Program-made: the position numbers and the translations under genes
Shown: positions 14,760 to 30,574 of the stretch, piece by piece
How positions within the stretch are numbered: the first letter of the stretch is position 1
How the letters are laid out: each line of letters starts with the position of its first letter
The notes under the pieces: generated by a model
Databases searched by the model: none
What the model saw: the letters and a program-made list of their open reading frames with translations, nothing else
What the model was told of the DNA's origin: nothing
Assembly: GCA_951406725.2 (NCBI GenBank)
Contig: OX597823.1
Location: forward strand, 62,558,001-62,622,000
Length of the DNA: 64,000 bases
Direction of reading: 5' to 3'
From: Octopus vulgaris
Taxonomy: Eukaryota

Positions 14760-15241
14760 AACCCGCAGAACTTCTGAAGTTCGCAACTGATTTTCTCCAA
14801 ACTGGGAACATACATTACTTATGCTCCAGATATGGTTTTTAGAGTTTTAGTAAACTCAATCGGAAAAACAATTTCACTTCTTGTTAATGATAAAGCAGGA
14901 CCACCCAGAGTTTTTTGCCTTATTGATCTTATTGTTCTTTTGAAACTTTGTATTTTTGGCAATTTCGGTGAAACATCCAGATAGCAATTTTCAAAAACGC
15001 TAGACACAACAGAATGAGGTGGATCTTAGGCTGTCTTGACTATTTGACGCATTTTTGAGACAATTTTATTGGACTCAATTTCGACGGAATCCAATACATG
15101 ATTATACTCTTTAGAAAATTTAACAATTTCATCATTGATTATTATTCGAGCAAGACATTTTGATAGAAAATATTTCTCCCATTTCCAATATTTTTGTTCA
15201 CCATTTTGACTAATTCTATGAAAAGAATGCCCATTGAAAAG
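14760..15241 (-). pseudogene. FLYWCH/MULE-type transposase N-terminal relic, interrupted by the mariner at 15244
   Basis: Minus strand translates FNGHSFHRISQNGEQKYWKW...KCLARI...YNH...SPKLPKIQSFKRTIRSIRQK...P...EIVFP, resembling FLYWCH + MULE N-termini. Confidence 0.6.
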
Positions 15242-15243
15242 TA

Positions 15244-17541
15244 TTAGGTCATTAAAAATTAAATGCCCGATTTTCTAATGCACCAAGTTTGACAGTCGTT
15301 AACTCTAATGTTTTATCCTGACAATTCTTTGTTTTATAACATTGAAGAGTTACATCATCACTTTTCGAAATGCAGTTCATGGTGTCTGCTTATATTGTGA
15401 GTTTTCTCTTGTAAATCAATTTTTGTGAACCCATGGATAGATAAAAAATTCGTGTTGTTTAATGAATATGAGTTTTGTCATGGAACCAATGCATCCCAGA
15501 CAGCTCGAAACATCAATGAGGTGTTTGGTGAAGATGTGGCGAATAAGCACCCTGCACGTCGATAGTTTGAGAAGTTCCGGTCTGGTGGCTTTACTCTTGA
15601 AAATCAGCCTGAGACTAAGGCGAATGATGATGAGCAGGAAACTGTAGTGGAAGCGGATACATCTCAAACTACGCGTGAGTTAGCAGCAAGGTTTGATGGT
15701 CCAACCGTATTGGACCATCTGAAACAAATCGGCTTGATAAAGAAGCTAGACAAGTGGGTACCACACGAACTGAACAAGCATCAAGTGACACGTCGTCTTG
15801 AAACTTGCTCTTCTTTGCTATCATGGCAAAAAAGTGAACCAATTCGGTATCGTATCGTTACGTGTGATGAAAAATAGATTCTTTTGAACAATAGTAAGCG
15901 TTCTGCACGGTGGTTGGATAGAGACAAAGTACCAAAACATAATTCCAAAAAGAATATTCACTAAAAAAAAGCTAGTGGTGTCTGTTTGGTGGTCCAGCGA
16001 TGGTGTCATCCACTACAGCTTCATGAGACCTGGTAAGTCAATTACAGCGGGTGTATACATCAACCATTTGGATGAAATGATGAGTGAACTTGCATTGAAA
16101 CAACCAAGACTGGTCGATAGAAACAGGCTAATTCTCTAGTAAGACAATGCTCGACCACATGCTGCACAAAAAACGCTACACAAGTTATAGAAACTGATCT
16201 TCGAAGTACTCTCACATCCACCATATTCACCAGACCTTACACAACTGACTATCACGTTTTCCAGGCATTAGACAACTGTAGCGGACCCTTAGAGAAATCC
16301 TCCCCCCCCTCTCTCTCTCTCTTTCTCTCTCACTGACATATACGTATAACACAAATACGGACGTAGCAGATAACAGCCAACCTTCGTACCCTTAGGCCCA
16401 GTTGTGTCCACAACTCTGATTGGTTAGTTTGGGTGCAGTTTATCTCTTGCTTTATTTCGCGCCAGTGTGCAAACCAATCAATCGCAACCTTCCGATAAGG
16501 TCCCGTGACACTGCTTTCTAAAGCTAGTTTGAGCCTGTAGTTTGCTATCAAACACAGCGATTCATTGAATCGCACGTCTTTGGTTCTCACCACTGATCAC
16601 AGAGCACCCAGCGACACAGCCATGTTCCAGAGACAGTCAGCCAGTTCCAGCGACCGCGACACCACCACTAGCAGCATTTCAGGATCTTCACCACCGTCAC
16701 CTTCACCTTAATGTCGCCTTCATCTTAAAGTCGTCTCCACCATCGTCGCCTTTATCTTACGTACACAGCAACATCGCCCAGGTTTAACTTCACGCTGTTT
16801 ATGAGTACTTCACCATGGTTAACAGCTAGCTCAGCCTGCGAGAACCTTCTGTACCAAGTAACCCGGCACAGCATAGAAGCTACAACCGCTACATGACATG
16901 TGTTCAACCGGCTCTGCCTTGTGACCTCAACTATTGTGCGAACTGGTATCTATCTTCAACTTGTGTCTGAACTTCTAGCGTCCTGTTATAGACTCATTTC
17001 TATGCTCTGTATTTTATCTCACATGCATACACCCTTGTTTGTACACACCTACACGTTATGTATGCTTAGCGGTCTGTCTATTATTATTCTTATTATATAT
17101 GTACTTATGACGCACACAGGTACACACACTCTGCTACCCACATGTTAACATCTAAATAAACCTTTCTCTTTAACATACTGCGGTTGTATTGTCTTTCTCC
17201 ATATTCTTTCTGGCATCTGTATTCGTTTATCCATATTTTGACTTTTATTGTAAGGCGACCGTGCGGTGTTTAAAAGGAGTCGTTCATTTGCCACCATCTC
17301 ATTTCGCACGGTCGAAGGAAAAACTTCAAATCTGAAGAAGATGCAAAAACATCCTTTCGTGATTTCATCATCTCTTGCTCTCCAGAATTCTTCGCTGCTG
17401 GCATAAATAAGCTACCGATAAAATGGCAAAACTGTGTTGATAATTTAGGTGCATACTTTGATTAACTGCATTGCATTTTCTCGAGATAAAGTAAAATAAA
17501 CTTTCAGTTGAAAATCGGATATTTTATTCTTAATGATCTGA
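15244..17541 (+). mobile_element. mariner transposon, full length but defective, with a ~1-kb internal insertion
   Basis: TIRs ttaggtcattaaaaattaaatgcccgattttc / rc tcagatcattaagaataaaatatccgattttc with TA TSD. Transposase motifs WVPHEL, IVTCDEK, DNARPH and HPPYSPDL, with stops and frameshifts. Confidence 0.92.
16277..17296 (+). mobile_element. solo-LTR-like insertion inside the mariner transposase
   Basis: Interrupts the transposase after ...ALDN; the frame resumes at GKNFKSEED near 17315. Starts TGTAGCGG, has AATAAA at ~17155 and a candidate CA end at 17296. No clean TSD. Confidence 0.5.
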
Positions 17542-17849
17542 TATCTTTTTACGATTATATATAAATATATTTTTCAATAAATATATTCAAACGACATTTT
17601 GCGTTAATTAAGTTTCTGAAACAGCTATTTATACTAATCGTTATGTAGAACGGGATTAATTGTGATCATCAGCCGAATTGAGTTTGAAACAAGAGCATCA
17701 ACCGAATCGAGCTTGAAAATAAATATTAAGAAATTTTGAAAATAACTAGTTCAAATAACTAGATCAAGTTTTTTTCTCGGCACTTGAAAATAAATATAAC
17801 AAAAATTTTTAAATGTGTTTTAGATTAATTACCATTAGATGAAAAATAC

Positions 17850-18835
17850 TGTTACGAACCTGCCGTCGCTCAACTCGAACTCGGGACCCTAAGTCGAGCG
17901 ACGACGACGACCACGCTCAGTCAAACGGAAATCCACCACAGAAAACGGTTATGGCTTGTCAGCGAACACAGACCGGTGACCGGAGACAACAACAACAACA
18001 ACAGGAAGAGAGAGACACGGCGGAAGGCAGTTGCTTACATTTAACAACAGTTTATCCAATTGTTACAACATCAAATAAAACGTAATACATATCAGATACA
18101 TTTAAGAGAAGCATTTACAACAGATTGTACAGGGTTAAAAGAAGAAAAACAAACAATAACAATCAATGCATGCACAATACACGACGTTCGAAAACAGTCC
18201 ACATTAAATGTTCTTCCTCTTCTCTTCAACAATTCTTTTTTTTTACATTTAACAGATTACAGTTTGTCACAATGTTCTTTTCCCTTCTTTTTCCTTCTCT
18301 TTTTTACAGTTCTCTTTACACAATGTTCTTTTCCCTTTTTTTAACACAGTTCACAAGTTCTTTTCTCTTTTCTTTTCACATTTCACATCAACATCCAAAA
18401 TTCAACAACAAAAACATAAACATTACCGCACGTTCCGAGTCTGCAACAACCTCAGCTCCCACTACAAATAGCCATGCCTTCTCGCCGTAATCTCCCTCAC
18501 TTCCTCTCTACTGACATGTCCTCAATCCCCTGTGTCTGTCTTTCTCGCCACGCTTGTCATCCCTGTCGTTGCCTCTCGCCTGACATCTCTCACATTCACT
18601 GTCTCTGCCCAAACTGACCACTAACCCCAATGCCAGCCGCATTTATAAAGGGTAGCATTTTTATTTCTTTCTTAAATTTTGCTTGACCGGATAAGGGTCA
18701 GAGGTACCTTCCAACCTCATTAATTTCCCTTACCGGTAACAAGACAAAAGGCCCATAACTTGTTTCTCCAGCCTGTCCGGCACCAAACCAACGAAACTGG
18801 GTCATAGCACTTTTTCTCCGACTGACCTCGTATCA
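17850..18835. mobile_element. solo LTR (Gypsy-like, 4-bp TSD)
   Basis: TGTTACGA...TCGTATCA terminal inverted ends; ATAC duplicated at 17846-17849 and 18836-18839. Confidence 0.8.
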
Positions 18836-18939
18836 ATACGTTAGATTAATTGCTACAAGATCAATTGTATTTTAAATATTTTCGCCGGATACTATGTTAA
18901 ACATACAGATACCAACATACGCATTCAGTTGTTGTTTTA

Positions 18940-19063
18940 TGCACACCACACACACACACACACAGAGAGTCTCACACAGTCACGTTCACACAAACACTCA
19001 CACACAATTTCAAATAGTTACGTGCACACAGTCTCATACAGGTACGCGCGCGCGCACACACGC

Positions 19064-19095
<32 letters not shown>

Positions 19096-19441
19096 CGTTT
19101 CATACAGTTACGCGCGCACACACATACGCAATCTCATACCGATACGCGCGCGCACAAGCACAAGTTTCATTCAGTTACGCGCACACGCACACTCACAGTT
19201 TCATACAGTTACGCGCATGCACACATACACACACAGAGAGTACCATACAATTATACGCACACACAAACACAGTCTCATAGTTACAAGAGCGCCGTCGCGC
19301 ACACATACGCACACACACACACACACAAACGCTCACACACACACACATACGCACGCGCACACGCACACACGCACACACATACCTTCACACACACATACCT
19401 TCACACACACATACGTACGCGTGCACACACACACACACACA
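18940..19441. repeat. degenerate (CA)n-rich minisatellite
   Basis: Recurrent catacagttacgcgc/(CA)n units. Confidence 0.85.
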
Positions 19442-19442
19442 G

Positions 19443-19849
19443 ATACCTATTTCTTTACTACCCACAAGGGGCTAAACACAGACAGGACAAACAAAGACAG
19501 ACAAACGGATTAAGTCGATTATATCGCCCCCAGTGCGTAACTGGTACTTATTTAATCGACCCCGAAAGGATGAAAGGCAAAATCGACCACGGCGGAATTT
19601 GAACTCAGAACGTAAAGACAGACGAAATACCTATTTCTTTATTACCCACAAGGGGCTAAACAAGGACAGACATAGGTATTAAGTCGATTACATCGACCCC
19701 AGTGCGTAACTGGTACTTATTAATCGACCCCGAAAGGATGAAAGGCAAAGTCGACCACGGCGGAATTTGAACTCAGAACGTAAAGACAGACGAAATACCG
19801 CTAAGCATTTCGCCCGGCGTGCTAACGTTTCTGCCAGCTCGCCGCCTTA
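19443..19849 (-). mobile_element. tRNA-derived SINE with duplicated 3' half
   Basis: Minus strand ggcggcgagctggcagaaacgttagc...gagttcaaattcc (A/B boxes), body agtaccagttacgcactggggtcgat; the 3' part occurs twice. Confidence 0.85.
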
Positions 19850-20044
19850 TACACACACAAAGATACCAGCTGACAATCAGCGTTATATTTTTCATTTATT
19901 TATTACAAGAATGATCTGCCATTTATTGATGTAAATCATATTTTAGATCCAATGAATAATAATATATATTACATAATATCTTTGTAATTCACTGATTTTC
20001 TTTACAGTATTATCTTTTCTATTCACTTCAACATTGAAGTTTAA

Positions 20045-20165
20045 TTTGTCAAAATATTTTCGTCGCTTTAAGACCGCGACCTGTTCACTGACAAAAATCC
20101 GTGCAGCACGGATTTTTGTCAGTGAACAGGTCGCGGTCTTAAAGCGACGAAAATATTTTGACAAA
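20045..20165. repeat. perfect 121-bp palindrome (60-bp arms, 1-nt loop)
   Basis: tttgtcaaaatattttcgtcgc...ccgtgc A gcacgg...gcgacgaaaatattttgacaaa. Confidence 0.97.
20115..20165 (+). ncRNA. type I minimal hammerhead ribozyme variant, G3-C8 core (mirror copy 20045-20095 on minus)
   Basis: tttgtca|GTGAACA g|gtcgc-ggtcttaaa-gcgac|GAAA atat T T|tgacaaa: 7-bp stem I, 5-bp stem II, palindromic stem III AATATT. Confidence 0.7.
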
Positions 20166-20229
20166 AGGCGGCGAGCTGGCAGAATCGTTAGCACGTCGGG
20201 CGAAATGCGTAGCCGTATTTCGTCTGCCG
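20166..20229 (+). mobile_element. 5' head of a tRNA-derived SINE split by a LINE insertion (remainder 25536-25972)
   Basis: Matches the head of the SINEs at 19849 and 26556. Confidence 0.85.
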
Positions 20230-20684
20230 CACGTGTGTTCGTGGTAAGAATTGCTGTTAATATTGTTAATAACTGTTGTTTCTTGTTAAACTGTTGAATA
20301 ACTTAACTGTTGGAGTTTTCAATTGAAAACACTTAGTGCTTGTGGTAGCACGCGTTGTTCATTCCCCTTTTGGGGGGAAGAATGTCGTCTAGCATGGAGC
20401 CTACCGTTGGAGCAGAAATACTTGTTTCTCCTGTTTAGAGGAGGAAAAACATGTCCGGCGAGGAGCCAACTACAGACAGGGAAATAAGGGTTTCCCCCGC
20501 TACAAGAAGGAATAGCAGAGTGGATAATATATTTGATTTTTTTGGAGATGTATCTGAGAGCTCGTCAGAACTTTCACCAGAAAAGTTTCCGACTTTGCCA
20601 GAGAACAAAGGCATTGTGTCGAAGTGAATAATTGATGTACCTAGCATCCAGATAGAACCAAAAAATGGAAAAAGAAGTTTTGCG

Positions 20685-21948
20685 TTGGCTGCTGGGGGTG
20701 GAACCCGGCTACTGTCGACGAATAAAAGCGACTTTATGAAATACAGCCAAATGATGAAAATAACTGACAACGGTGTGAAAATTGAACCTCCGCAAAAGTT
20801 ATTACAAGAAGAAAAGCAAAAAACAATAATTTTCAAAACATATTGTCTACAAAAAAGAAAAAATTGAAAGAATGTCAGAAGAGAAAATAGAAAAGTGCTT
20901 AAAGCCAATATGGGGCGACGTAGTTTATCTGAGAAGAGGCAAAAAAATCGGAACGGTGGAAGTAAGGTTCACCAATAAAGAAATAGCACACAAGAACTCA
21001 GTTGAAACGCTGAAAACGAACGACGTGGAGCTCATCCCCTATTATACGGGGATGAGGACGTCCAGAATAAAAATTACAAGGGTCCCGCCAGAAGTCGACC
21101 CAATGTGGTTGTTGGCGGCAGTCCTAATCAAAGAGGTAGAAAAGATTACTCTCCTCCAGGCTACCGCTACGGAAAACCCACGCTGGAATGATCAAACAAT
21201 TAATCTTCTCATTCAAGCGGACCCTAAAATAATTCAAGCAATTCCCGAGTCAATTGAGGTAGGGGAGGAGAGCATCGTGGTGTTTGTTGAGGGCCGAAAA
21301 CCTCGATGTTTTTTATGTGGTCAATTAGGCCACATTCGAAGGAACTGCAAGGAAAATGAAGAAGAGGAAGAAGAGGAGAAAAAAGACAAAGAGGAAGAAG
21401 ATAAAGAAGAAACAGATGAGAAAAAAACAACAAACAAAAGAAAAATACAACCAGCAACCCAGCCGAAAGCGGCGACTACTACAGAACAACGACCAAAAAA
21501 GACTGCCAGAAGAGAAAAAGAAGAAAAAGGCATAATAGCCGTATACACTAAAGATACTGAGCTCATGAGAGACATTCAACTGATAAAGACTGTAAAAAAA
21601 ATAGATAACCTTTCAGAGGAATTTATCAATTACGACATATATGAAGTCTCAAATAAGACTTATAGAATTCTACAAAGCAAATACAGAAAGACTGTATCTT
21701 CATTAAGATTAGATTTTAACAAGTCGATATTTCATGGATTACCAGCCCCGATCCCGCGAGAAAAGGAAAAGGTGGAGATTCCCCCTCCACCTGATAATTC
21801 TGTGTCGGTGGTGAGACGGGATTTTGACAAATCTATTTCCCAAAACCGTCTACCTCCGACCCTGGATCAAAAAAAGGTGGAGGGTCCCCCTCCACCGGAC
21901 AATCCTGTTTATACAGGTAAGTCATGTCTATTCACATTGGTTGTTTAA
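20685..21948 (+). pseudogene. LINE ORF1 (gag-like, CCHC zinc knuckle), frameshifted near 20870
   Basis: CFLCGQLGHIRRNC knuckle, E/K-rich segment, homologous to ORF 47070-48242. The true start may lie further upstream (~20382) with a stop. Confidence 0.85.
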
Positions 21949-24900
21949 ATGTTCATGGCCTGTTGTCAAGCTGGAAGCAAGGACGCTTTCTAAATGACAT
22001 CAGGTCGAGAAATTTGGATGTAATTGTCGCAACGGAAACCCGGGTGAAGGGGCTAAGAGATCTGCTCCCCCTCCTGAACGGCTACGAGAAATACGTTTCT
22101 CCGAGTCGGGCGGGAGGGGGGTGGGGTGTGGGTCCTACTAAAAAGAAACCGGGTAGCCGAGAAAAAGTTGGTTTTTTCTGACCCAGAAGGCAGGCTGGTC
22201 GTTGTGGCAAGACAATCAGGCTGGTCGCTATTTACGCACCAAACATTATTGGCCCGCAAACTGACCTGGGAAAGTTCCTAGCCACGTCGCATTCACTAGT
22301 AGTGTTAGGAGACTCTAATACAATATGTGCAGCACACACAGATTGTGTTGGCTCAAGCTCGAACATGAACAGAAAATGTAACCCAGGCTTTCGGGATCTG
22401 CTAAGTCAATTTCAGCTAGCAGATCCATATAGGTTGGAGCACCCGAACACTCCACAGTGGACGTGGTCAAATATTGACGGGTCTACCAGAACATATCTAG
22501 ATAGGATTTTAATTAGAGAAAAAGATAAGTCCATAGTTGAGTGTCCACAGTTTTTTCTAGTCAGCTACAGTGACCACAAGATGGTTACCTGTAAACTGAC
22601 GGTAGATAAGTTGCATAGACAGGGATCTGGCAACTGGAAACTCAATACGTCCCTTTTGGCGATTGAGGAGTACAGAAAGCGGATCAAGATGTTAATACAG
22701 AGGGCATTAACAGGTACCATCATTAATAACAAATGGTGGTACGCCCTAAAAAGAGCCATCAAATATGAGTCTATTAGGTTTAGCATAAGTTTAGCTAAGA
22801 AGGGACGTAAAATAGGAGATGGTCTAGTTAAGGAACTAGAAGAAGCCTGGAGGACTGGTAATACAGACCAAGCGAGGGTGAAAAGACTGGAGTTAAACCA
22901 ACATCTTGAAGCCCACCACATGGGAAGTATTACCAGAGCTAAGTTACGTGCAATGGGAAGTGAAAGAATCAAAGCCGCTGGATGGGCCCGAGTGGTGGAA
23001 GCTCGGCAAGGAAATAGTTCCTCTATTCGGTCTTTGACGAATCAAAATGGTGTCTTGGTAAACGAACCCGAGAAAATGTGTGAGGTCTTTCGGGAGTACT
23101 TCGCCCAGCTGTTCGGGGGTGACGGCGGTCCTGGTGGTGGGAGAGCCCTCGAGGACTTTCTTACCGGGCTGCCGTGCCTCTCGGGGTCGGATGCGGAGTC
23201 TTGCGAAGGGCCAATCACACCTGAGGAGGTGATGGAGGCTTTGGCCGATTGTAAAGCGGGTAAGTCACCGGGACTTGATGGTCTTCCGTACGAGCTGTAT
23301 AAATGTATGCCAGACTTGTTCGGGCAACTACTGACTGACGTGTACGCGAACTGGAAACAGAATGGGTTTATCCCCAGATCTGTGCGCCGGGGAGTAGTGA
23401 CGTTGGTCAGAAAGGACCCGGACAAGGGGGACGTTCTAGAGAATTTCAGGCCCATCACTCTGTTAAACGCAGAAGTGAAGATTTTGGCCAAGGTTCTAGC
23501 AAAAAGGTTGGCGCGTGTCGCGAATGGTATAGTCGGGGAGGCACAGACATGTGCCATCCCAGGCAGAACCATTCAGGATACCCTCCATCTTATTCGCTAT
23601 ACCATAGAGAGGGTTGGTAATAAATCTGGCAAAGGTGGGGCATTGGTGCATTTGGACCAGTCTAAAGCTTTTGATAGGGTTGACCATCGATACCTAGCGA
23701 CTGTACTTGCGCGGTTTGGCCTGGGTCTTGGCTTCCTCAGGTGGTTTATCGCTTTGTACCACAACATTGACTCGATTGTTCGGGTGAACGGTTTCCTTTC
23801 GAAGCCGTTCTGTATCAAACGCTCGGTTCGTCAAGGATGTCCGCTTTCACCACTTTTGTATGTGATGGCTCTCGAGCCATTACTGCAAAGGTTGAGTGGC
23901 ATCCCGAGAGAACCAGGACTAGAGGAGTTTGTTATGGCTTTCGCGGATGATATCACTATCAGTGTAACCACAGTAGCACGCCTACGTGAAGTAGGTAAAA
24001 CTATTGAGGCTTACGAGAAGGTAGCAGGAGCAAAGATTAACCGGGAAAAGTCGGTCGGCTTGCAGCTCGGCACCTGGGTTGGCAAGTCGATGCCTTCAGA
24101 CAGCGTTGTTAGGCGCTGGACGGAGGGACCGGTTAAGTTGCTGGGAGTCTGGTTTGGACCAGGCCTCCAGATAGAGAAGAACTGGACGGAGGTATTGAGC
24201 AGGGTGGCTGCAGTAGTCAAGACCTGGTCTTGGCGGTGGCTATCTCTGAAAGGGAAGGCGGAGGTGGCCAATGTGTTTATCGCATCGGTCATTACCTACC
24301 GCCTGACTGTCGTGCCCTGTCCGGATTCGTGGTTGATCAGGTTGGAGAGACAGCTCTTTCGCATTTTGTGGAAGGGCAGGTCGCCACTTGTGAAACTCTC
24401 TGTCTGCTGTCAAAAGCCTTTAAAGGGAGGTTTAGGGATGCCTTGGTTAATGATGCGCAGACATGCGTTGAGGTTGAGACACCTCTGGATTCTCCTGGAT
24501 AGTGAACGGGTGTGGTCTCCGCTAGCCAGACAAATGTTCCCTGAGTTCAAGAGTTTTTGCGAACAGGAAGCCTGGTGTTCTCGTAGACCGAGGTCGAGTG
24601 AGTGGCATAAAGAGTGCCGTAAGGACCTCTTGCTTTTCCGGCGCTCGGGCAACGCCAGCGGTGGGGGTTCCACACGGATTTTATATAGTGGGTTGGTAGA
24701 GTCTGAATGCGACGATGACCTGGGGTTGACTCTAGGTTTCGGATTTATTCAACTGGACAGCTTGTTTCATCGTACATTCGGGTTGAGAACGTTGGACAAC
24801 TTCCAAAAGTCCTTAACCTGGCAATGTTACAGAAGTGCCTTTCCCGTTTGGGATAAGCTCGCAAGACATGGTAAACGTCAGTCGCCGACCTGTCCAAGAT

Positions 24901-25296
24901 GCGGGGGGGGGGGGCAGGGAAACCATCCCTCACGCTATTGTTCAGTGTCCGGAGATAACTGAAATGTGGGCTTATGCTGAACATCTGTTGTCCGGCGAAG
25001 TAAGAGTACGGCTGTCGACTGAGTCAATTATAAAAATTGACCCACCGGAAGTTCTAACGAACGAAGGTAAGAATTGTTTTCTCACGGTTGTAGCAATAGC
25101 AAAAGAGGCTGTATGGAAGACTAGGATAAAAGGAATTAAGACAGGCAACTTTATGTCTGGTCACAATTTACGATCTTTTTTCTCTTTTCATTTGAAAAGG
25201 AAACTGTGGCTGGAGAAGAGGTGTCTGTCGGAATGTACGTTCCAAAAGAGATGGAAGTATGTTGCACGAGTGTTGTGCGTGCAAGGAACCGTGTGA
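21924..25296 (+). pseudogene. LINE ORF2 (APE endonuclease, reverse transcriptase, C-terminal Zn motif) with frameshifts
   Basis: GCLNVHGL...ETR, YLDRIL, SDH, KSPGLDG, FRPITLLN, DQSKAFD, RQGCPLSP, AFADD, CPRC...ETIPHAIVQC. Breaks at ~22120-22300 and at the poly-G near 24905. Confidence 0.93.
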
Positions 25297-25535
25297 ATAG
25301 ACGAAAAAAATAAATAAATAAAAAGGTATCAGCGGTAGATCGGGGCTTGTGGGATCGGAGCGTAACTTGATCATCACTTCATTTGTATTGTTTCTGTACT
25401 GTGTATTCCATTCGATTTTTATGTATTGTATTTTATTTTTGAAGTCACATTTATGTAAAATCATATCGATTCACTGATCCCATCAGTTGTACTGCCCATA
25501 TCTATGTTTGGCCCCCGATGGGCAATAAAGAAATT

Positions 25536-25972
25536 CGTATTTCGTCTGCCGTTACGTAGAGTTCAAATTCCGCCGAGGTCGAGGCAGAAACGTTAGCACG
25601 CTGGGCGAAATGCATAGCCGTATTTCGTCTGCCGTTACGTTCTGAGTTCAAATTCCGCCGAGGTCGAGGCAGAAACGTTAGCACACCGGGCGAAATGCGT
25701 TGCCGTATTTCGTCTGCCGATACGTTCTGAGTTCAAATTCCGCCGAGGTCGAGGCAGAAACGTTAGCATGCCGGGCGAAATGCGGAGCCGTATTTCGTCT
25801 GCCGATACGTTCTGAGTTCAAATTCCGCCGAGGTTGACTTTGCCTTTCATCTTTTCATGGTCGATTAAATAAGTACCAGTTACGCACTGGGGTCGATATA
25901 ATCGACTTAATCCGTTTGTCTGTCCTTGTTTGTCCTCTCTGTGTTTAGCCCCTTGTGGGTAGTAAAGAAATA
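25536..25972 (+). mobile_element. SINE remainder with three extra tandem ~85-bp head repeats
   Basis: Unit ttacgttctgagttcaaattccgccgaggtcga-ggcagaaacgttagc...cgtctgccg starts at 25552, 25635, 25720 and 25805; normal SINE body follows. Confidence 0.9.
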
Positions 25973-27706: not shown

Positions 27707-27749
27707 CCACTACAATCGTTTCTTGTCTTGATCGACAATCTTCAGGTGG
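27707..27749 (-). ncRNA. type I minimal hammerhead ribozyme (canonical CUGAAGA core) in a Penelope-like pLTR remnant
   Basis: ccac|CTGAAGA|ttgtc-gatcaa-gacaa|GAAAC gatt GTA|gtgg. Lies between 22-bp inverted repeats 27610-27631 / 27779-27800. Confidence 0.85.
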
Positions 27750-28049: not shown

Positions 28050-28435
28050 CTCCGGAAAATCTATTTCTGTAAAATGTTGGGAGTGGGTAAAATTTCCGAG
28101 GCTTCTGCCTCAGCCCATAGTTTTCTGGACCCAAAATGGGTTTAGTAGCATATTAGGAGATCACTGGAATTCATAAAAAAAAATTCCAATGATTCCGGAA
28201 TATTGGTGGGGGGGGGGGGGGTTCCGGTCCCCCCCCTTTTTTTCCGAAACAAAATAAGGGATTTGCAGCATATTAGGAGATCAGGGTACTTGATTCCACG
28301 GAAAAAAATTCGATTTTTTTTTCCTTAGTGAAAATCGTGCAGGTGAAAAGATCAGTAGGGGTGGGGGTGAAATTTCCGAGGCTTCCACTTCACCCCACTC
28401 CGTTATTCGGACCCCCAAAAAGGGTTTTGTAGCAT
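28050..28435 (+). repeat. dispersed/tandem repeat family also present at 33495-33975
   Basis: Shared tagcatattaggagatca...ttccaatgattccgg...gggtacttgattcca...gaaatttccgaggcttcc units. Confidence 0.75.
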
Positions 28436-28436
28436 A

Positions 28437-30574
28437 TGCCAGAAATATGTCCCAGAGCACAAGGCCAAAACAAATAGGAGCAAGATTCCAAGAGACAGGA
28501 AGATCCTCATGAGACGACAGACGAAGGTTGCAAATCGTCTCAACCAATATCCCAAAAGTAGCGAAACGTCCCGCCTAAAAACAACACTGATGGAGATCGT
28601 AAAAAGGCTGCAACAATCCTATGTGAAGGAGAAAGCAGACAAAGAAACCTGGATTATAAAAAACATTAAATCAAACCCAAAGGCCTTCTTTCATTACGCG
28701 AAAGAAACAGTCTCAGTGCACTACAAGATAGGACCCCTCCTCCAAAAGGATGGCTCCCTCACAGACAGTCCAACTAAGATCAGTGAGATGCTGAATGACC
28801 AGTTCAAAAGTGTCTTTACCACCCCGTTGGAACACAGACAAGTGAACGAACCAGTGGACTTCTTTGCCGCCTCACCTATAACCAGCGAGGTGGTTACAAT
28901 AGAATGTATTGACATTAGCGAAAAAGATGTCCTACTAGCCATAGATGAAGTGGACACAAACTCAGCTGCTGGTCCAGATAGTTTCCCAGCCATCCTCCTC
29001 AAAGCGTGTAAGCATGCCCTGGTAAAACCCCTCGAGATTCTCTTCCAGAGCTTTCTTGCGAATGGCAAACTGCTAAGCAAGCTGAAGGAGGGAATAATAT
29101 GCCCAATACATAAAGGGGGAAGTAGAGCAGATGCCAAAAACTATAGGCCTATCTCTCTGACTTCACACATCAGCAAAGTCATGGAACGGATAGTCAGAAA
29201 GAAACTAATCGCATTCCTTGAGGAAAATAACTTGCTGAGTGATACCCAGCATGGTTTTCGACCAGGTAGGAGCTGCCTGACCCAGCTCTTACAACATTAT
29301 GACTTGGTGTTGAGGCAGTTACTCAACAAATCAAATGTGGACGTAATCTACCTTGATTTTGCAAAAGCTTTTGACAAGGTGGATCATGGTATGACATGCC
29401 ACAAACTGCGTGACCTCGGCATAGCTGGAAAACTTGGAGTGTGGTTACATGACTTCCTGAAAGATAGGAGTCAGGCAGTAGTTGTTAATGGAGCCACCTC
29501 TATGAACACACAAATACTGAGCGGTGTTCTACAGGGCACTGTCTTGGGACCACTGCTTTTTATAGTGGCCCTCTCAGATATGCCCTCAAATGCCCGGATA
29601 GCCACTCTGGCCAGCTATGCAGACGATACGAAAGTCTCGCAGAAAATACAGAACCCCAGCGATGTTGCACACCCGCAGCAGGAGTTGGACTCAATCTACA
29701 GATGGGCTGAGGATAATAATATGCAGTTTAATGCTGAAAAATTCCAGGCCCTGCGCTGCCAGTATCCAAAACGGAATATTAAACTTACAGGATACACCGG
29801 TCCACAGGGAATTTCAATCCCAGAGCCTAAGTCTGTGAGGGACCTGGGTATCGACATGAGTGATGATACCTCTTTCCAAGTGCACATTACCAGGATGGCG
29901 ACAAAATGCAGACGACTGGCTGGGTGGATCCTAAGAACATTCAGAACCAGAGATAAGGAAACCATGATGGTCCTCTGGTGGACATTCGTCCTCTACCGCC
30001 TGGATTACTGCTCACAGCTATGGTCACCCATCAGTGTAGAATTAACAGCGGACCTTGAAGCAATCCAGAGAAGATTCACAAAGAAGATCGTCTCTTTGCA
30101 ACAGCTCAGCTACTGGGAAAGGTTGAAACAGCTAAGACTCTACTCCCTGGAGAGAAGACGGGAGAGGTATGCAGTAATATATGTCTGGAAGATCCTGGAA
30201 GGAATTGTGCCAAATTTTGGCATTATAAGCTACACCAATGCTAGAACGGGACGACACTGCATAGTACCAAAGATCCCAGGAATGCCATCACGCTTCAGGA
30301 CCAGCTTCTGCAACAGCCTGGGTTTCAAGGGCCCACAGCTTTTTAATATTCTCCCAAAGAGTCTGAGGAACTTGCACAAAGTAGATGTAGCGGTTTTTAA
30401 ATCAAAGCTGGACATCTTCCTGTCAAGAGTCCTAGATGAACCTACCTCACGGCAAGAGGTGCAAATGAGAGTAGCTATATCAAACTCCATTCTTCACCAA
30501 GTGCCACATATTAGACGAGGTTCTTCGTAATAACAGTGTAGCACAAAACGGCGGTGCATCAGCATGGCTGCAGC
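28437..30574 (+). mobile_element. 5'-truncated CR1/L2-group LINE with open 673-aa RT ORF (28509-30530)
   Basis: NPKAFF, NYRPISLTS, QHGFRPGRSC, YLDFAKAFDKV, QGTVLGPLLF, YADD, LDYCSQLWSP, LYSLERRRER. Short 3' tail ends at a TA tract. Confidence 0.93.

Follow-up and report, generated by a model that had tools for sequence, protein, structure and literature searches.

Head-to-head copies of an octopus Penelope-like element carrying a putative hammerhead with a G3-C8 core pair

A perfect palindrome in the Octopus vulgaris genome probably consists of two 5'-truncated end-repeat copies of a Penelope-like element (PLE) lying head to head, likely through cDNA fold-back, each carrying a natural minimal hammerhead with a G3-C8 core pair that we predict to be slow and to act only as a dimer. 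By sequence comparison the palindrome is an ordinary PLE insertion product of a known inverted form, and in itself of little importance. The swapped core pair is, on genomic counts, a property of a whole family of thousands of copies.

The palindrome and its hammerhead motif

The locus lies in a window of 64 kb, by which we mean the whole stretch of DNA analyzed. Its two arms (20045-20104 and 20106-20165) are each 60 nt long and 100% complementary around a 1-nt spacer, A20105, as the initial annotation had described. Judged by their sequence, both arms are remnants of family copies. In the left arm G3 falls at 20088 and the predicted cut at 20052/20051, with the match to the family tail extending to ~20017, and the right arm is truncated at 20165 by an inverted SINE piece. 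The junction GTGC-A-GCAC sits within the element's own leader, just past the putative start site, and the identical spacer was present at 3 of the first 50 head-to-head loci listed (counted by eye) and also at L232. The features of the locus are as follows.

20017..20104, minus strand: left arm, 5'-truncated PLE pLTR fragment with predicted hammerhead (blastn to the natural long copy L175, 90% over 92 nt; descriptor scan)
20101..20109, no strand: putative fold-back junction GTGC-A-GCAC (sequence)
20106..20165, plus strand: right arm, 5'-truncated PLE pLTR fragment with the entire predicted hammerhead (family comparison)
20115..20165, plus strand: predicted minimal type I hammerhead (folds, descriptor scan, covariation across families)
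20115-20121/20159-20165, plus strand: stem I, 7 bp
20122-20128, plus strand: core GUGAACA, with G3 at 20122 and C8 at 20127 (sequence, family counts)
20129, plus strand: extra unpaired G between positions 9 and 10.1
20130-20134/20144-20148, plus strand: stem II, 5 bp
20149-20152, plus strand: GAAA
20152-20157, plus strand: stem III, self-complementary AAUAUU
20158..20159, plus strand: predicted cleavage site after U17, UUU triplet (hammerhead numbering)
20165..20228, minus strand: SINE 3' piece interrupting the right arm (sequence comparison)
20229..25536, plus strand: unrelated LINE inserted in the SINE, with a 14-bp target duplication (20215-20228/25537-25550)
20830-21948: LINE ORF1 frame, zinc-knuckle
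22182-24962: LINE ORF2 frame, RT
25537-25929: remainder of the same SINE, with partial tandem repeats
28371-30530, plus strand: another RT-encoding frame (Pfam RVT_1)

The LINE insertion is thus later than the SINE insertion that cut the right arm. Three 85-nt partial SINE repeats follow the LINE 3' end (25537-25791) and may hint at LINE targeting of the SINE. A short plus-strand frame at 15566-15877, with no Pfam match, is presumably a piece of a mariner transposase, which it resembles.

Closer inspection of the motif showed that the literal core C3 U4 G5 A6 N7 G8 A9 is not matched, with G and C at positions 3 and 8; U4, G5, A6 and A9 are all there, and positions 3 and 8 are Watson-Crick complementary as G-C. 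G12 A13 A14 A15.1 (20149-20152), U16.1 (20157) and H17 (20158) are likewise present, as is the three-way junction with stems I and II in both the folds and the cross-family structure count, together with three traits of PLE-type motifs, namely the extra nucleotide between 9 and 10.1, the G10.1-C11.1 pair and a palindromic stem III. Assigning the cut from established hammerhead numbering reproduced the position proposed in the initial annotation, after 20158 in the UUU triplet. Sequence comparison supports reading the motif as a PLE-type minimal hammerhead and a predicted ribozyme. An Rfam search of 15000-25000 returned no hammerhead match at E<=5, in agreement with the earlier expectation that standard searches would miss a swapped core. 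A relaxed descriptor gave two unrelated weak matches in the 64-kb window, at 27745 and 44536 (both on the minus strand; C3-G8 and U3-A8), which probably arose by chance.

When folded and compared with shuffled sequences, the whole palindrome reached -103.1 kcal/mol (z -24), a value equaled by 0 of 200 shuffles. A single arm formed stems I and II, with only a small advantage over its shuffles (z -1.6 at 60 nt and z -2.35 at 51 nt). Pair probability in outer stem II fell from 0.99 in the single arm to ~4e-24 in the both-arm transcript, and in this folding model a read-through transcript is a long hairpin that hides both ribozyme motifs and leaves the hammerhead essentially no weight. The fold annotated for each strand (stem I, core, stem II, GAAA and palindromic stem III) therefore stands as drawn for a single arm, apart from the omission of G20129, and does not carry over to a transcript of both arms. 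Since the two copies lie on opposite strands, the palindrome in one transcript also lacks a dimer partner. With the motif masked by the hairpin, no same-sense partner and 603 comparable inverted loci elsewhere in the genome, a role of the palindrome as a two-strand ribozyme was not upheld. The predicted dimer helix of the family is itself marginal (-0.2 kcal/mol); a competing 10-bp register is stronger (-3.8) and would absorb A13, A14 and U17.

The G3-C8 family, its parent element and its relatives

We next assessed the motif by pattern searches of the octopus's own genome. Searching its 2.8 Gb with an 18-nt core pattern gave 6,616 exact matches, and the reversed control gave 0. Across the first 30 loci, the unit spans up to ~200 nt and comprises a common 5' start, the motif and a tail with two alternative end points that often runs into (TA)n. 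When positions 3, 7 and 8 and the extra base were allowed to vary, the pattern matched 5,212 cores, and among the first 100 of these, counted by eye, 94 carried G3 and C8 and 0 carried C3 and G8. A further 100 copies were chosen by the sequence 3' of the cut, a sample that includes segmental duplicates; 73 of the 77 whole-motif copies had G3 and C8, and G12-A15.1 were kept in 74-77 of the 77, the letters beside the anchor not being independent of it. Among 30 loci chosen by protein, 29 had the stop motif, and each of these carried G3-C8 at a distance of 951-1134 nt past the stop. Loop II took several subfamily forms around a constant core. Sixty-five matches differed from both G3 and C8; 12 of them were C3-G8, and the 4 inspected all came from other families.

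Collectively, the genomic counts indicate that G3 and C8 are fixed together family-wide and are not private decay. A canonical family consensus was not found, and the natural double swap (C3G + G8C) that the initial annotation had read from one locus was borne out as the family state (94/100, 73/77 and 29/29), G3 and C8 traveling together. Among recent copies, fixation follows from their origin in few masters and is not selection in itself. Contigs of four runs under four organism labels displayed no G3/C8 difference among the rows listed; their status as RNA is a guess, and they are uninformative on expression.

By sequence, the motif-bearing unit is the pLTR of a GIY-YIG Penelope-like element. 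Longer copies have ~1 kb of microsatellite-rich sequence upstream followed by one common ORF end, which places the motif ~1 kb behind a GIY-YIG ORF. The ORF C-terminus matched GIY-YIG (Pfam PF01541, 25.4 bits against a cut-off of 22.6); the RT was recognized by eye from its motifs alone, Pfam RVT_1 and PDB searches giving no match, and the best copies are truncated or broken. A Cys-rich linker, CxxxCxxC, was seen by eye in L174 and may correspond to the Zn-finger-like Cys linker that precedes the endonuclease in Neptune or Nematis PLEs (PMC8557442). At one locus, L373, which holds a full partial tandem, two motifs on the same strand flank a broken ORF at a spacing of 4,261 nt, so two same-sense copies in one element occur in the family and are absent at the window locus. 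Counted from the common start in L373, the order is G3 (+23), predicted cut (+58/59) and ATG (+115), and because of this ATG position the tail corresponds to the first codons of the ORF. The family has the EN+ PLE traits of a pLTR, partial tandems, inverted truncated copies, a tail and microsatellite targets, and no head-to-tail tandem arrays of short hammerhead units, a retrozyme trait, were found among the short-copy loci inspected. The GIY-YIG ORF at L085/L123 was rejected as the parent, as it belongs to a different PLE beside the copy and the other long copies share another ORF end; L121 and L122 were rejected as tandem elements, being larger duplications. At three or more loci (L123, L132 and L143), family copies lie directly beside or inside unrelated PLE ORFs.

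A sister family, E, shares 55% protein identity over 815 aa, has many intact ORFs of ~1,310 aa and is probably young (for example L360 and L362; C19 and C17). Its motif occupies the homologous place and had C3-G8 in 22 of 22 among the matches listed, at least one of which was counted twice. The extra G is kept, stems I, II and III have two-sided changes relative to the G3-C8 family, and the normally invariant position 9 is C in all 22 listed matches. An older family, B (L186-L218), has a tail that translates to a similar N-terminus, and G8 paired with U3 or C3. In a search with positions 3, 7 and 8 free, 47 matches comprised 16 U-G, 15 G-C (the G3-C8 family together with a group D), 5 C-G and 11 others. 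For family B these represent 16 U3-G8 and 5 C3-G8, possibly a wobble state of the 3-8 pair; its stem III, AGGACU, could dimerize via tandem G-A pairs. The decayed group D (L201, L203, L211, L047 and L066) has a similar start motif, C or U at N7 in several members and mostly C8. G3-C8 is present in L201 and L211, whose N7 and loops differ from those of the main family, although these are few decayed copies. Group D suggests that the swap is older than the G3-C8 family.

To compare structures we used 14 hand-picked copies of three families (alignment A3, from which 5 group D rows, 1 group C row, L199 and L009 were left out and to which L241 and L362 were added). In this count 91.8% of cells were paired and 5 pairs, including 3-8, had changed on both sides; the covariation score was reached by 0 of 500 shuffles and slid controls gave 26-56%, a result that draws on only three lineages with rows chosen by patterns fixing part of stems I and II, and that we treat as supportive and not as a probability. 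Kept across families with different loops were U4, G5, A6, G12, A13, A15.1, U17 and a pairable 3-8. The 3-8 pair exists only within the active tertiary fold. As sister family E combines C3-G8 with compensatory stem changes, selection seems to have acted on both the fold and the 3-8 pair.

Copy ends, inverted insertions and competing explanations

Genome-wide, two cores meet head to head at a spacing of 10-40 nt in 603 loci, with varied junctions. Inverted family sequence stands just upstream in 57 of 100 arms, motifs on both strands point outward in 7 of 12 long loci, and beyond the core several loci pair perfectly over at least 100 bases. In many cases one arm reaches the common start and the partner arm starts at variable points. 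These junctions point to fold-back of the cDNA end as the origin of the palindrome.

In a sample of 100 copies, some of them segmental duplicates, 48 have their 5' ends within -3..+4 of a single position, 22 nt upstream of G3; the remaining 5' ends comprise 7 longer copies, 43 in between and 2 within 2 nt of the cut. G preceded the common start in 17 of 35 short copies and 0 of 49 long copies, the latter having C or T there; this excess (p 4e-5 at an assumed 18% background) likely represents a cap copied at the transcription start. A spliced-exon origin of the extra G is disfavored by the variable preceding letter, although longer transcripts may still contain an intron. A branch-point-like and pyrimidine-AG motif occurs at the putative start, 20-45 nt upstream of stem I (L091-L120; 537 exact copies), and may serve as an initiator, as a 3' splice site or as both. 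No pile-up of copy 5' ends was observed at the predicted cut: 139 of 9,791 copies were without U17, and 15 of the 30 inspected were true truncations, giving ~0.7-1% against ~0.8% per nearby base. We read the absence of a pile-up as a sign that the templates were uncut RNA, which it fits, although it fits an inactive motif equally. About half of the inspected copies without U17 were point variants (L268, L271-L273 and others), many of them U17C; this change would give a better NUC triplet, and these are probably neutral transitions.

The mechanism we propose would begin with transcription at the common copy start, yielding an RNA that would be capped. The RT would then start inside the tail and copy uncut RNA back to the cap, producing thousands of short copies (up to ~200 nt) with an intact ribozyme motif. 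The cDNA end would often snap back on a short self-complementary stretch and be recopied, giving a palindrome. In the full tandem transcript, two same-sense motifs would pair via AAUAUU and then cleave, probably with low efficiency and with help from the element's protein; at the window locus, the long hairpin would block cutting.

We weighed this account against the view that the motif descends from a hammerhead that no longer cuts, its fold being kept as a protein-binding site or 5' leader and G3-C8 being a tolerated end point. Such an origin would explain why copy ends show no excess at the predicted cut, why sister family E carries A9C despite its many intact ORFs, and why family B is mostly U3-G8; minimal PLE hammerheads are also described as cutting poorly in vitro (PMC4209133), and cutting as dispensable for insertion in vitro (PMC11167929). 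We nevertheless consider it unlikely, given that the conserved core letters and a pairable 3-8 persist across families whose loops differ. Also against it stand the retention of a pair that arises only in the active tertiary fold and G3-C8 in the older-looking group D, where N7 and the loops differ, albeit in few decayed copies.

Two other readings fare worse. The perfect 60-bp arms, an Rfam match to MIR7486 (62.7 bits) and the possibility that long hairpins could feed small-RNA or editing pathways would suit a palindrome that is itself functional, whether as a two-strand ribozyme switch, a MITE or a hairpin/miRNA gene. However, the MIR7486 match stems from pairing and not from sequence and lies below the gathering score of 67 bits, so a microRNA precursor was rejected; the element 3' ends face outward, unlike the terminal repeats of a MITE; and the hairpin abolishes the ribozyme fold. 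As the 603 similar pairs have varied junctions, several with more than 100 paired bases outside the core, and the arms here were shortened by later insertions, we judge a functional palindrome very improbable. We attach even less credence to a chance hammerhead-like fold in AT-rich repeat DNA. The small margin of a single arm over shuffles, the two unrelated descriptor matches in the window and the lack of an Rfam hammerhead match would fit chance, but the motif sits at the expected place of a PLE hammerhead, has the extra nucleotide, the G10.1-C11.1 pair and the palindromic stem III of PLE motifs, and covaries with the C3-G8 sister, a comparison that largely refutes this reading.

Beyond the account of two truncated copies joined head to head, we tentatively raise the doubtful possibility that this PLE lineage lowers ribozyme activity, with three families having three weakened cores (G3-C8; U3-G8; C3-G8 with A9C), and that the hammerhead acts as a slow, protein-gated timer between translation and retrotransposition. 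If so, a cut at +58 would take off the mRNA cap and one at the 3' copy the RT start site. The G3-C8 family would then represent the double transversion at high copy number in an animal for the first time, and would provide a natural series for exploring the role of PLE hammerheads.

Significance and relation to known systems

The C3-G8 pair is regarded as nearly invariant and forms part of search descriptors (PMC3088659, PMC8557442), and swapped cores may exist in some PLE families recorded as having no hammerhead. Published natural G3-C8 pairs were not found, the cases encountered being engineered (PMC11167929, PMC8495972, PMC3884650); this result is provisional, as the largest survey of PLE variants fell outside the scope. 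A natural G3-C8 pair in a PLE hammerhead is thus provisionally unreported. That survey, reportedly the one published by Lunse et al. in 2017, may already list it. A recently active animal family with thousands of G3-C8 copies beside a C3-G8 sister would confirm the tertiary pair naturally, by double transversion, and the sister families offer matched natural variants for probing PLE hammerhead function. The map of copy ends adds genomic evidence for an uncut, probably capped RNA as the copied template, and uncut RNA is described as the main insertion substrate for the Anolis PLE (PMC11167929).

The closest counterparts are the metazoan PLE minimal type I hammerheads described by Cervera and de la Pena 2014 (PMC4209133), which occupy the same pLTR place and share the extra nucleotide between 9 and 10.1, the G10.1-C11.1 pair, a short palindromic stem III, NUU cut sites and an occurrence mostly as single truncated copies, with some opposite-strand pairs as here. 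They differ in the core pair, as Fig. S3 of that work has G3-C8 in 0 of 56 representative PLE motifs (53 C3-G8, 2 U3-A8 and 1 U3-G8). In the survey of natural core variants by Perreault et al. 2011 (PMC3088659), 3-8 covariation occurs in nature, with U3-A8 the only one named in the part relevant here, and U3-A8 is a known natural covariation in both sources (PMC4209133, PMC3088659). PAc, the Poseidon element of Anolis (Frangieh et al. 2024, PMC11167929), resembles our family in its pLTR-ORF junction, AT-rich targets and uncut RNA template. A further likeness is the tail: in PAc, as described, RT starts internally in the first codons and gives the 'tail', and copies here end at two tail points followed by (TA)n. 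PAc has C3-G8, and its engineered C3G/G8C double mutant partly rescues a hammerhead that requires protein (PMC11167929); here G3-C8 is natural and the motif precedes the ATG. The inverted 5'-truncated PLE insertions described by Craig et al. 2021 (PMC8557442) typically have an inverted truncated copy by the 5' end, a tail and microsatellite targets, and the present locus differs from that form in that both copies consist of leader and tail only, hence the near-gapless palindrome. Finally, non-LTR retrozymes (bioRxiv 10.64898/2026.07.22.740005) are likewise described as short, non-coding, PLE-related units with type I hammerheads, but they are defined by head-to-tail tandem arrays, whereas the short copies here are single or inverted.
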